From IMG/VR virus record IMGVR_UViG_2529292908_000012: a DNA stretch of 34,970 bases; one strand, written 5' to 3'. The notes under the pieces are model-generated. The model did no database searches. It had not been told where the DNA came from and worked only from the letters and a program-made list of their open reading frames with translations. Position 1 is the first letter of the stretch, and every line of letters starts with the position of its first letter. Below are positions 18,310 to 21,436 of the stretch, one piece after another. This DNA comes from a virus. Its lineage: Duplodnaviria > Heunggongvirae > Uroviricota > Caudoviricetes. The position numbers and the translations under genes were made by a program.

Positions 18310-18502
18310 GAATCCTCCCGGCCGGGATAATATTGTGAGTAAAATAAGGAGCGGGCTGAAGTCCGGAAGTTACAGGACAATGGCAGAAGGGAGACTACAG
18401 CCCGCAATTCGAAAAAGGTCGCGCAGTTGCGCAGAGTGATTACTATGGGGTATTATTCGCCAGCTGAAATATTACTTCACGTTTCATTGTTCATTCCTTG
18501 CC

Positions 18503-18531
18503 GCCCGCGTCTCCCAGCGCGGGCTTTTTTG
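18503..18531 (+). terminator. Rho-independent terminator
   Basis: gcccgcg tctcccag cgcgggc followed by TTTTTT. Confidence 0.5.
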
Positions 18532-18560
18532 TCCATAAGAAAGCCCCTCCGGAGAGGGGC
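18531..18560 (-). terminator. Hairpin with U-rich tail on - strand (candidate tR'-like terminator upstream of late genes)
   Basis: Perfect 7-bp stem gcccctc/gaggggc with 4-nt loop; on the - strand followed by tttcttat. Confidence 0.35.
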
Positions 18561-18648
18561 TGGAGAGTGGCGCTATGTGCCATTGCATGGTGCCGGGTGC
18601 CTCCCGGTGAGTTCAGCCCGGTGCCACTAAACCCGCGTCATTCTCGTT

Positions 18649-18918
18649 TTGATAATCAGAGATTATAACGGCGTTATCAAGCAACGTCTGCCACGAGTCG
18701 GTGGCGGCAAATCTGGCGGTTATCGCACAATCATTTTCTATCGCGTCGGCACAAGGGCCTTTTTCGTATATGCATACGCAAAAAATGAACGTGAAAATAT
18801 AACCGCTACTGCGGAAAGTGCATTTCGGAAGGCGGCTCCTCACGTACTCAATCTAACAGATGAACAACTGGCACAACTGATTCTACAGGGTCAGTTTACG
18901 GAGGTACCCAATGAGTAA
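18649..18918 (+). pseudogene. HigB-2/RelE-family toxin gene lacking its N-terminal ~35 codons
   Basis: GGGKSGGYRTIIFYRV...AFFVYAYAKNERENI matches the RelE/HigB-2 core as recalled; only a TTG start is available and an in-frame stop lies 21 nt upstream. Confidence 0.5.
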
Positions 18919-19228
18919 AAATTACCGCAGTGATGCGCTTGCATCCGTACATGAAATGATGGAATCGCTTCATGATATCGGCGCAGTAACGAAACAGACT
19001 ATGCGAGAATTCGATGAAACTTGTCTCCAGCCAGCGCCGGTAATGTCTCCGGAAAGGATCCGTGCACTGCGCGAACGAGAGCATCTGTCTCAACCTGTTT
19101 TTGCCAGATACCTCAACGTCAGTAAAAACCTGATATCAGACTGGGAACGTGGTGTAAAACGGCCGGGAGGTGCCGCTCTTCGCCTTCTTTCAGTCGTAGA
19201 GAAAAACGGAATCCAGGTAATATCATGA
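18911..19228 (+). CDS. HigA-2-like HTH (XRE) antitoxin
   Basis: Overlaps the toxin stop by 8 nt; C-terminal HTH LSQPVFARYLNVSKNLISDWERGVKRPGGAALRLL. Confidence 0.7.
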   Translation: MSKNYRSDALASVHEMMESLHDIGAVTKQTMREFDETCLQPAPVMSPERIRALREREHLSQPVFARYLNVSKNLISDWERGVKRPGGAALRLLSVVEKNGIQVIS

Positions 19229-19243
19229 TACTCCAATACAACA

Positions 19244-19265
19244 AAACCCGCCGAAGCGGGTTTTC
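19244..19265. terminator. Bidirectional intrinsic terminator between convergent higA-like and doc-like genes
   Basis: aaacccgc cgaa gcgggttt with A-run 5' and T-run 3'. Confidence 0.5.
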
Positions 19266-19278
19266 ATTAGAAGCACCT

Positions 19279-19764
19279 TTAGTTTTGCTGTTCTATTTTA
19301 AGCTTGATAGTTTCATACAAAACAATAGTTGCGCCTGTTTTACATAATTCCCGGCTGTCATACGCACGAGACCAATAACACAACCAGTTCTCGAGATCTT
19401 CTCGAGTATAGGTTTTGCAGGCCAGTCCCTCTGCCATTTCCACGATTTCATCGCCTGGTGCTGTTAACTCATAGCCATTCAACAACAAGAAGACATAACC
19501 AGCCATCATAGCTGTTCGTTTGTTTGCATTAGCAAATGGATGATTCTGAATCAGACTTTCAATCAATACTGATGCCAGTACAAACATGTCATTAGTCTGT
19601 TCATACCATCGAACCATGCTGGGACGAGACTGAGAAGAACTTAAATTATCAACACTCAGCACACTAACAGGTTCATCTGGTGTTTGAAGCTCAATTAAAA
19701 GGCGATTAATTTCGGTAAGATCATCAAACGAAAGGTAGTGCACTCCTTCAACAATCTCAGCCAT
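19279..19764 (-). CDS. Doc/Fic-family toxin-like protein (Doc-type motif)
   Basis: HPFANANKRTAMMAGYVFLL matches the Doc-type Fic motif HxFx(D/N)(A/G)NKR; ATG at 19764 preferred over the TTG at 19773. Confidence 0.75.
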   Translation of the reverse strand: MAEIVEGVHYLSFDDLTEINRLLIELQTPDEPVSVLSVDNLSSSQSRPSMVRWYEQTNDMFVLASVLIESLIQNHPFANANKRTAMMAGYVFLLLNGYELTAPGDEIVEMAEGLACKTYTREDLENWLCYWSRAYDSRELCKTGATIVLYETIKLKIEQQN

Positions 19765-19782
19765 AGAGCACAATACCCATCA

Positions 19783-19932
19783 TTACACTTTTGAAAGTTC
19801 TTCCATTGCCTTCTCGTAACGAGAAAAACCGAAATCGAAAGCATTTTTCACCTGCTCACGATGAGTGCAATTTTCATCGATAGCCGGGCGCGGAGCTGCC
19901 ACAACGCTTTTATCGCGAGGGGGAATAGTCAA
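19783..19932 (-). CDS. Candidate small antitoxin-like ORF upstream of doc, non-canonical start
   Basis: Frame ends 10-19 nt before the doc start (..YEKAMEELSKV*); the only upstream in-frame starts are TTG/GTG with no clear SD; not in the ORF track. Confidence 0.2.
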   Translation of the reverse strand: MTIPPRDKSVVAAPRPAIDENCTHREQVKNAFDFGFSRYEKAMEELSKV

Positions 19933-20078
19933 TCGCGGGTGTTTTTTAGTGCGTAGCTCATTGGGTGTACCCTTACTTCTCCGTCCTGTTCTTTAACAAA
20001 AATCAAGTCAATACAAAATTAGTCAGGCTAATGTTGTTAGCATAGCCTAATACCAATCGTATTCACAACCACAGTAAG

Positions 20079-20102
20079 TGAAAAAACCCGCCGAAGCGGG
20101 TT
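20079..20102 (-). terminator. Intrinsic terminator downstream of hok
   Basis: Second copy of the aacccgc cgaa gcgggtt hairpin, with T-run on the - strand. Confidence 0.4.
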
Positions 20103-20170
20103 AAGTGCGGGTGCGTTGAGGATGCCTGACACATCAGAGGTGGCGAGGGATTTCTCCCTCGCCGGGTCTC

Positions 20171-20326
20171 TTACTCCTCAGGTTCGTAAGCTGTGAAGAC
20201 AGCAACCTCCGTCTGACCGGTTCGGATTCGTACCTCGCAGAGGTCTTTCCTCGTTACCAGTGCCGTCACTACGACGGTAATACAGATGACGATCAGGGCG
20301 ACTAACATCGCCTTTTGCTGCTTCAT
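20171..20326 (-). CDS. hok: Hok/Gef-family type I toxin (HokD/RelF-like)
   Basis: MKQQKAMLVALIVICITVVVTALVTRKDLCEVRIRTGQTEVAVFTAYEPEE, near-identical to HokD/Gef as recalled; terminal hairpin 20142..20163. Confidence 0.85.
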   Translation of the reverse strand: MKQQKAMLVALIVICITVVVTALVTRKDLCEVRIRTGQTEVAVFTAYEPEE

Positions 20327-20383
20327 AGCCTGCTTCTCCTTGCCTTTCGGCGCGTAAGAGGCTAACCTACATGTGTCTAGCAT
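20171..20383 (-). CDS. mok: Mok (overlapping reading frame required for hok translation)
   Basis: 70-aa ORF in the hok frame extending upstream (MLDTCRLASYAPKGKEKQA then the Hok Met), as in hok/mok/sok loci. Confidence 0.6.
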   Translation of the reverse strand: MLDTCRLASYAPKGKEKQAMKQQKAMLVALIVICITVVVTALVTRKDLCEVRIRTGQTEVAVFTAYEPEE

Positions 20384-20571
20384 GAAATTGGCCTCAGATT
20401 AATGTTAGGCGTCTTGCAGGACGCGTAATGTTAACTGGGGTTTTTCTCTGTCTGCCTTACGGTGGCATGCCCGAGGCAGACAGCCTCAAGCACCCGCAGC
20501 AATTCTACTTAACTCTCGCTTTACCGCAAACCGTTTTTACCCGATATGGGAATTCCCATATCGTAATGAAT

Positions 20572-20676
20572 TCAGTTCCCTAGTCGATCCATCAAAAACA
20601 CAACCAGGCAGTAAACGCCCACAACAGCAATAACAGCCAGCGCACCTTCCATTGCCAGTGATATATCATCCGACAT
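20572..20676 (-). CDS. 34-aa small hydrophobic peptide
   Basis: MSDDISLAMEGALAVIAVVGVYCLVVFLMDRLGN with strong SD (aaggaggg) 5-6 nt upstream; not in the ORF track. Confidence 0.4.
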   Translation of the reverse strand: MSDDISLAMEGALAVIAVVGVYCLVVFLMDRLGN

Positions 20677-20711
20677 ATTCCCTCCTTTGGTGTTAATCCC
20701 GGCGAACGTTT

Positions 20712-20795
20712 TTACCCCCACCGACAAATAACATATACTAAAAAAGTGATAGCCATAGCAACGCCTGTAATTGCAAATGCTTCAGGCCAGTTCAT
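20712..20795 (-). CDS. 27-aa small hydrophobic peptide, translationally coupled to the DUF551 gene
   Basis: MNWPEAFAITGVAMAITFLVYVICRWG; ATGA overlap with the DUF551 stop; SD aggagg 8 nt upstream. Confidence 0.45.
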   Translation of the reverse strand: MNWPEAFAITGVAMAITFLVYVICRWG

Positions 20796-21436
20796 TGGCG
20801 CACCTCCTGCGGCGGTTCTGGTAGCGGCATCCAGTCGGTTACATTGCGGCTCTGTGTTTCGAAAAATTCATCACCATCACGGACTACATCAAAAAACTCA
20901 CCGTCTCGATATTGCGCATAAAGAACGAATGCGCCATCACATAAAATAATTACGTGCTGACCGTCATCCGGCATTCGCTCACTACAGCTTATCCAACCAT
21001 CCAGAGTTACCGGATGGTTGGTTGACGTTTCCGAGATTTCCCGAAAATTATTGGTTGACGAACCCTTCTTTTCCCGAAAGTTTCCAGCCTGAAGCATGGC
21101 GGCGCTGTCTGGCGGGGCAGCATATAGCGGCACGTATATTTCCGGTTCCTTATCAGCACCGGGTTGCTCTTCCAGTGAGAATGTCTTTCCGGTAAATCGA
21201 TTCATATAAAGCACGGGCTCTGCTTCCAGCGAAGCCTGAGCAACAAGGGCCAGTGCTAAATCCAACTCAATTGCCTCGAGAGAATTTTTGAATGCTGTCT
21301 GTTTTACTGCAAATTTCATCGCCTTTACATTTTCACTAACATGACTGATTAACTGCTCTTTTGTAAAAGTGGTCATCTCATTCTCCTTTGATGCGAATGC
21401 CAGCGACAATTGAAGCCTGATAGCTAATTTACTCAC
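20792..21436 (-). CDS. DUF551-like nin-region phage protein (copy 2)
   Basis: 214-aa ORF (GTG start); C-terminal DWMPLPEPPQEVRQ. Confidence 0.8.
   Translation of the reverse strand: MSKLAIRLQLSLAFASKENEMTTFTKEQLISHVSENVKAMKFAVKQTAFKNSLEAIELDLALALVAQASLEAEPVLYMNRFTGKTFSLEEQPGADKEPEIYVPLYAAPPDSAAMLQAGNFREKKGSSTNNFREISETSTNHPVTLDGWISCSERMPDDGQHVIILCDGAFVLYAQYRDGEFFDVVRDGDEFFETQSRNVTDWMPLPEPPQEVRQ

Follow-up and report, generated by a model that had tools for sequence, protein, structure and literature searches.

The stretch examined here (18310-20800) lies in a 34,970-nucleotide (nt) piece of DNA, hereafter the window, that to judge from its genes is a defective derivative of a short-tailed, 933W-like lambdoid prophage of the non-Shiga toxin (non-Stx) kind. 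The stretch holds a cluster of toxin-antitoxin genes between the DUF551 gene and the late genes nanS-p, holin, and endolysin, and it has no gene for the late activator Q. Very probably, Q is absent through a deletion in a decaying prophage, and the toxin cluster was thereby brought beside the lysis genes. About 5.2 kb of DNA present in near-identical relatives is missing at 18665/18666, Q is part of what is missing, and the window contains no Q or pR' sequence. In the mechanism we propose, a deletion mediated by a TA microhomology would have joined the middle of a relE pseudogene to about nucleotide 70 of the small RNA (sRNA) gene STnc100, removing everything from the 5' end of relE through Q, the late promoter pR', its leader, and the terminator tR'. 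The toxin-antitoxin cluster would then be the left-hand neighbor of the lost segment and not a replacement for Q. Two further microhomology deletions would have stripped the packaging, head, and tail genes, leaving a cryptic prophage in decay.

The deletion between relE and STnc100

A megablast search with 18000-21900 against complete Escherichia coli genomes returned 31 genomes that match from 21900 down to 18666 at 99.8-100% identity and then end. The remaining 670 bases, on the 18000 side, correspond to what many Stx-type phages carry upstream of nanS. How are these two parts arranged in an intact prophage? In E. coli O104:H4 2011C-3493 (segment L001), the order is DUF1627-DUF977-DUF551-peptide-hokD-small open reading frame (ORF)-doc-helix-turn-helix (HTH) gene-relE, followed by an ORF6N antirepressor, ninB, ninE, DUF1364, rusA, ninH, Q, 766 bp of non-coding DNA, and nanS-p. 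Pairwise BLAST aligns window 25040..18666 with L001 2860..9235 (99.5%) and window 18670..16155 with L001 12721..15235 (99.7%), with nothing in between; the window lacks L001 9236..12725, a 3,490-bp deletion relative to O104:H4. NCCP15648 and FORC_069 (L008) are closer than O104:H4; they share the window's immunity region and have 99.98-100% identity to the window. Both have two extra antirepressor genes in the nin region, and the deletion measured against them is 5,204 bp. Window 34970..18666 is 99.98% identical to FORC_069 and 18670..14438 is 99.98-100% identical to it; the latter stretch is 100% identical to NCCP15648 over 4,230 bp.

The gene content of the deleted segment was taken from the annotation of the three relatives by the Prokaryotic Genome Annotation Pipeline (PGAP). 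In the intact order, the early part is cII, O-like, DnaC-like, DUF1627, DUF977, DUF551, a small peptide, hok/sok, and the small ORF with doc. The middle part comprises HTH/relE on the opposite strand, isrK/C4-like RNAs, the ORF6N antirepressor, ninB, and ninE (with ant and kilAC), and the late part runs through DUF1364, rusA, ninH, Q, pR', a 258-nt StxS-like leader, tR', STnc100, nanS-p, holin, endolysin, Rz, and terminase. When the eight deleted proteins were compared with the window by tblastn, no trace of them was found except the retained part of RelE. At the junction there is no added DNA and no repeat, and the endpoints fall inside the relE pseudogene on one side and inside the STnc100 sRNA gene on the other. 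A 501-nt query across the junction found no record with at least 80% cover among 5,426 complete E. coli genomes and 50,697 phage records, and an exact 40-mer had no match in GTDB representatives, JGI metagenomes, or IMG/VR.

It is tempting to see the toxins as occupants of the Q position, as an earlier reading made from the sequence alone (the sequence-only reading) proposed, with a toxin-antitoxin island inserted for Q by mosaic recombination. The cluster does stand directly between DUF551 and nanS-p in the window, and as a unit the hok, doc, and HTH/relE block is rare, occurring in 34 of the 5,426 E. coli genomes and in none of the 50,697 phage records. However, relatives that are 99.9-100% identical have the identical cluster plus Q further downstream. 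In FORC_069, NCCP15648, and O104:H4 2011C-3493, where the intact prophage is integrated in ynfG, an intact Q is found 2.6-4.3 kb downstream of the cluster, and over the 3,235-bp cluster block the window has only 3 differences from O104:H4. An insertion also fits poorly with a junction that has no extra DNA and truncates one gene per side. We therefore give an exchange of modules very little credence, and the proposal that the toxins took the place of Q does not hold.

The same reading was right that there is no Q between DUF551 and nanS-p, and there is none elsewhere in the window. A six-frame Pfam scan of 18000-22700, run with stop codons replaced by X, matched RelE, HTH_3, HOK_GEF, DUF551, DUF977, DUF1627, Fic, and DUF1737; the Q families PF06530, PF03589, PF06323, and DUF1133 were absent. 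Pfam, PHROGs, and NCBIfam found no Q among all candidate ORFs. The Q of the O104:H4 relative (144 amino acids [aa], PF06530, 170 bits) gave only chance tblastn matches to the whole window (E of at least 1). The remainder of the window is 99.9% identical to FORC_069 DNA, in which PGAP annotates no other Q.

Two ORFs named beforehand as places where a Q might hide, 21433-21843 and 21844-22614, proved to be DUF977 and DUF1627. PHROGs likewise assigns them to no Q family and groups DUF977 with Ren-like exclusion proteins; both genes are present beside a true Q in the relatives. Could one of these, or DUF551, be a non-canonical late activator that replaces Q? DUF1627 has weak winged-helix/HTH matches, which would suit such a role. 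Yet all three genes are unchanged in relatives that keep Q and pR', DUF977 falls with exclusion proteins, and the late promoter region itself is deleted, so a substitute activator is extremely improbable. Phage PhiR12_3, which has relE/HTH, was also considered as a comparison, but its context differs and it is uninformative for Q.

The lost segment also carried RNA elements. Rfam identifies isrK at L001 9457-9534 (69 bits) and a C4 antisense RNA at 9560-9644 (66 bits), both gone from the window. In the relatives, these matches lie directly upstream of the antirepressor, whose ORF6N/P22_AR_C identity was confirmed. Together, the three elements are a predicted P1/Gifsy-1-like antirepressor control module within the nin region.

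Further deletions and the state of the prophage

Two more deletions are visible against FORC_069 (Table 1). The second took the 3' part of Rz, a lipopolysaccharide heptose-phosphatase moron, both terminase subunits, the portal, capsid, and tail fibre genes, and cor. It leaves a fused ORF (14058-14633, minus strand) in which the 5' part of Rz is joined to the end of a tail-region ORF, and its junction is absent from the complete E. coli genomes searched. In the third, lom lost its 3' part, and a second hok/gef gene disappeared along with two to three hypothetical genes. No ORF left in the window is as large as a terminase or portal gene, and because the packaging, head, and tail genes are deleted, no virions could form. 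All three joins show microhomology of 2-5 bp (TA, GATA, and ATCC). The three deletions aside, only 12 small differences separate the 35 kb from FORC_069, so the decay would be recent.

This piecemeal decay by deletion resembles that of other cryptic or defective lambdoid prophages in E. coli, among them the K-12 elements Qin, Rac, and DLP12 and the defective Sp elements in O157 Sakai. As in those prophages, regulatory and morphogenetic genes have been lost, while int, recombination, immunity, toxin-antitoxin morons, and some lysis genes are kept. Unlike those prophages, this derivative appears very young, being 99.9-100% identical to intact copies, and all three deletions can be read at base resolution. 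Qin also has hokD beside relBE; the hokD part of the toxin block matches K-12.

Several points weigh against reading this as a true deletion in a decaying prophage. The junctions tested occur in no collection searched, and the deletions rest on one sequence. All three 1-nt differences from FORC_069 are homopolymer losses, a hint that the sequencing was prone to error. For the relative, pR' is placed by prediction, from a consensus match and homology to Sp5, and the silence of the late genes is something we infer from sequence. An alternative is that assembly, scaffolding, or processing made the deletions and that the real prophage is intact, with Q. Three large deletions in one 35-kb window amid near-identical genomes would agree with this, as would the uniqueness, in each collection covered, of the two junctions searched by similarity, the homopolymer indels (which suggest a noisy assembly), and the nature of the lost segments: nin-Q, morphogenesis, and lom are typical inter-prophage repeats that break assemblies. 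However, microhomology at each join is unlikely for three arbitrary joins and is typical of illegitimate recombination, and the junctions hold no repeat for an assembler to collapse. We consider an artefact unlikely.

If the deletions are real, a lambdoid prophage has recently been losing DNA in the ordinary course of decay, and no new regulatory design is involved. The case has little importance beyond annotation. It does suggest that where a regulator is missing beside unusual neighbors in a prophage, the first test should be for a deletion relative to close relatives; here, that test would fully explain the arrangement. The element should be scored as a defective prophage, not inducible to particles, whose late genes have neither activator nor promoter. 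As three recent microhomology deletions seen at the base level, it may also serve as an example of how fast lambdoid prophages are disarmed.

Late control and the orphaned late genes

Which control elements were lost along with Q? Over a stretch that takes in the last 45 nt of Q and reaches a terminator some 280 nt further downstream, the relative and Sakai Sp5 agree save at about ten positions. A consensus scan finds a promoter-like TTTACG-16-TATCAT that overlaps the Q stop codon, and a GC-rich hairpin followed by a T-tract ends 258-259 nt past the predicted start. In Sp5, the distance from pR' to tR' is 258 nt by differential RNA sequencing (dRNA-seq) and Term-seq, and the short transcript is the sRNA StxS (PMC7547250). 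Because of this identical spacing and the sequence match to Sp5, we infer that the relative's segment comprises the pR', leader, and tR' of this phage family. Blastn with the relative's Q-to-tR' DNA (L001 11882-12725) found no match in the window. As a side observation, the absolute Sp5 coordinates in PMC7547250 differ from those of the current record by a constant offset of about 142-143 nt, which may be due to a change of record version.

In the relative, tR' is followed by a full-length STnc100 (L001 12655-12860; Rfam RF02076, 165 bits). In the window, the deletion endpoint lies about 70 nt into this gene and leaves the 3' two-thirds and the terminator, an intrinsic one at 18542-18561 with a T-tract and a hairpin of -18 kcal/mol. 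The Rfam match does not represent a full-length STnc100, as its 5' third aligns to unrelated relE-antisense sequence. A TATAAT kept at the junction (18668-18663) was considered as pR' and rejected: it lies inside STnc100, and the pR' of the relatives is placed about 390 bp upstream, by the Q stop, from homology to Sp5. The junction also creates a promoter-like site, TTGATA-17-GATTAT (18680-18652, minus strand), which faces the STnc100 remnant and nanS-p. From this site or the TATAAT, transcription as far as the terminator at 18542-18561 could yield a shortened sRNA of about 110 nt.

The sequence-only reading suspected that the late genes are orphaned from their activator, and this is borne out, with pR', the leader, and tR' lost as well. 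Q-dependent late transcription would be impossible, and silence of the late genes would be expected. A Q from another prophage could not be expected to rescue them, because the cis site, pR', is gone. An Stx phage from which Q was deleted no longer expressed its late gene (Stx) or produced phage (PMC6328086). For nanS-p, holin, and endolysin, transcription would be left to N-modified read-through from pR or to chance promoters, and three terminators are still present on the path from pR to the late genes: 20102-20085 after hok, 19264-19243 after doc, and 18561-18542 in STnc100.

Might the deletion instead have rewired the late genes, bringing nanS-p, holin, and endolysin under N-antiterminated transcription from pR or under the promoter-like site at the junction, such that lysis and esterase release became SOS-inducible without Q and without particles? 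The window keeps an N-like protein, boxA/boxB nut sites, and a cI with an S24 autocleavage domain, tR' has been deleted, and the junction site faces nanS-p, all of which would favor such a change. On the other hand, the three intrinsic terminators on the path are good ones, and promoter-like sites are not more frequent than in shuffled sequence (5 versus 3.4 +/- 2.1). Stx phages with Q deleted lose late expression dramatically despite having N (PMC6328086). Moreover, Rz is truncated, and a unique junction gives no sign of selection. Rewiring is thus improbable. A fuller version of this idea is that nanS-p, holin, and endolysin, 6.8 kb downstream of nutR in the pR operon and behind the junction site, form an SOS-inducible, Q-independent, particle-free cassette for lysis and esterase release that is cotranscribed with hok and doc; we think this quite improbable.

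Two known arrangements can be set beside the deletion. In lambda nin5, 2.8 kb between P and Q is missing, terminators included. The deletion described here is likewise in the nin region and brings the late region nearer to pR, but nin5 spares Q and pR', whereas this deletion removes both and would disable the late switch rather than bypass N. The second is the Q-pR'-StxS-tR' module of the Stx phages 933W and Sp5. The intact relatives resemble it, with a 144-aa PF06530 Q, the match to Sp5, and the 258-nt spacing. The window differs in lacking the Q gene, promoter, leader, and terminator; no stx or tRNA gene comes next, and nanS-p follows the STnc100 remnant. The tRNA genes, which lie between Q and stx in Stx phages, were looked for specifically in the window, and none is present.

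Toxin genes and the rest of the window

The sequence-only reading described a dense island of three toxin families, which is overstated: only hok/sok and doc look undamaged and potentially active, and what is left of relE is a truncated pseudogene. The predicted hok/mok gene stands, with its HOK_GEF match and a full-length sok match (Table 1). The hok ORF itself is 51 aa (20171-20326) and lies within a 70-aa mok frame. As in hok/sok of plasmid R1, the locus combines hok and mok with the sok RNA. The predicted Doc-like toxin is also supported, by its TIGR01550 match and the Fic/Doc motif: its HPFANANKRTA is an intact instance of HxFx(D/N)(A/G)NKR, and the protein matches the PDB Doc chains 9vzc and 3k33, with the motif aligned to that of 9vzc.

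Like phd/doc of phage P1, this doc combines the catalytic motif with a small upstream ORF. It differs in its upstream ORF, which falls into none of the known antitoxin families and carries a frameshift here. In the relatives this ORF is 59 aa and has no match in Pfam, NCBIfam, or a PDB sequence search; from its position, it is likely to be the antitoxin of doc. In the window, an A7-to-A6 change at 19948 frameshifts it (MSYALKNTRD*), and a 49-aa ORF restarting at TTG remains (19783-19932). Because all three single-base indels relative to FORC_069 (26602, 19948, and 12346) are homopolymer losses in the window, the frameshift may be a sequencing error.

A HigB/HigA-like pair had been proposed in the cluster; its HTH antitoxin-like member stands, and its "HigB" is a truncated RelE pseudogene fragment. 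The toxin-first order and the overlap, in which the HTH gene overlaps the relE stop by 8 nt, are those of higBA/relBE systems; the truncation of relE is the difference. Both the N-terminal third and the promoter/operator have been cut from the remnant, which opens with six codons contributed by the STnc100 side, and tblastn identity to the relative starts at 18667. The gene was damaged even before the deletion. At the relE 5' end (MRIFKNAWFERLARK), the first 15 codons are out of frame in O104:H4, FORC_069, and phage PhiR12_3, a region seen at L001 9236-9360, at about 5870-5960 of segment L005, and at L008 21494-21620 of FORC_069, and PGAP gives relE of the relatives non-standard starts (ATA and ATC). 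As relE is frameshifted in the relatives, it would have been a pseudogene before the first deletion. It is to be annotated as a pseudogene: relE is predicted to be dead, and the HTH gene is predicted to be promoterless now.

Two small hydrophobic peptides had also been described. The one at 20572-20727 fits that description, and the other, at 19783-19961, is the hydrophilic ORF upstream of doc. The membrane-peptide ORF matches no family in Pfam, NCBIfam, PHROGs, or PADLOC. PADLOC identified no known defense system, giving only weak matches for the HTH protein (RmrA/control-protein models, best E about 1e-5) and Doc (PDC-S23, E 0.002) and leaving the RelE fragment, the 59-aa ORF, Hok, and the small membrane ORF unmatched. 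The hokD part alone occurs in 4,723 of the 5,426 genomes, and the toxin block appears to be a lineage-restricted assembly of common morons. By analogy with known systems, hok/sok and doc may still act as addiction or exclusion genes, and a role in stabilization or abortive infection is plausible for them. Of all the parts of the element, hok/sok, doc, and nanS-p have the best chance of still influencing the host.

Table 1. Features of the window. The phage reads on the minus strand and is listed right to left from the integrase.
Feature	Position	Strand	Evidence or remark
Integrase	33807-34970		Phage reads on the minus strand
Recombination genes	Between integrase and N-like gene		
N-like antiterminator	26787-27191	+	phrog_271 "anti-termination protein N-like", E 4e-35; Pfam weak only, E 0.004
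nutL	about 26735-26775	+	Nut-like site beside N-like gene; sequence reading
cI with S24 peptidase (autocleavage) domain	25471-26178	+	Pfam
cro	25136-25414	-	Pfam
nutR	about 25090-25130	-	boxA CGCTCTTTAAC and boxB hairpin; sequence reading
cII	24723-25019		
O-like gene	23387-24469		
DnaC-like gene	22640-23380		
DUF1627	21844-22614	-	164 bits
DUF977 (Ren-like)	21433-21843	-	222 bits
DUF551 protein	20792-21436	-	PF04448, 74.7 bits; last conserved gene ahead of the toxin cluster
Stretch under study	18310-20800		
Small membrane-peptide ORF	20572-20727	-	51 aa from TTG; relatives annotate 34 aa, hypothetical
hok mRNA leader and sok antisense region	20321-20495	-	Rfam RF01794 sok, 110 bits, full length 1-157
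mok/hok type I toxin	20171-20383	-	HOK_GEF PF01848, 82.6 bits; phrog_251; hokD in relatives
Small ORF upstream of doc	19783-19961	-	18 nt upstream of doc; 59 aa in relatives; phrog_2208 (unknown function)
Doc toxin	19279-19773	-	TIGR01550, 122 bits; Fic, 44 bits; phrog_577 "Doc-like toxin"
HTH (XRE) antitoxin-like gene, HigA/MqsA-like	18911-19228	+	HTH_3, 32 bits; weak MqsA matches; phrog_2104
relE/higB-like remnant	18649-18918	+	Pfam RelE PF06296, positions 42-120 of 120 only
Deletion 1 junction	18665..18666		On the minus strand, ...AACGCCGTTA joined to TAATCTCTG...; 2-bp TA microhomology
STnc100 3' remnant	18531..18670	-	Rfam RF02076, 78 bits; 5' 70 nt lost
nanS-p esterase	16399-18309	-	Late gene
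DUF1378 and DUF826 genes	Late block 14976..18309	-	
Class II holin	15514-15729	-	Late gene
Lysozyme (endolysin)	14976-15509	-	Late gene
Deletion 2 junction	14437..14438		15,188 bp relative to FORC_069; GATA microhomology
Deletion 3 junction	about 11622/11623		2,482 bp relative to FORC_069; ATCC microhomology

Among the remaining features, the late block matches Pfam SASA, DUF1737, and DUF6645. The boxA of the nutR- and nutL-like sites reads CGCTCTTTAAC or GGCTCTTTAAC and is followed by a boxB-type hairpin; the sites flank the immunity region. In the Rfam scan, only sok and the truncated STnc100 reached thresholds, with no other RNA element found.

Outside the regions discussed above, a 2,784-aa ORF (1502-9856, minus strand) combines the domains LPD38, LPD5, LPD1, and MuF_C; it is one of the "polyvalent proteins" that 933W-like phages carry, and the prophage, though defective, has kept it whole. 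A perfect direct repeat of 41 nt (24522-24562 and 24612-24652; spacing 90 nt) sits in a 72-aa ORF between cII and the O-like gene, and its peptide motif (QQPQQPEAD...) reappears in the O-like protein; these repeats may be origin iterons. Finally, window 1-1500 is part of an adjoining prophage remnant in the opposite orientation. This remnant has a second DUF551 gene at 372-1100 (plus strand), and its continuation in FORC_069 carries Ea22-like, DUF4752, TraR/DksA, BRO, and Ant genes.

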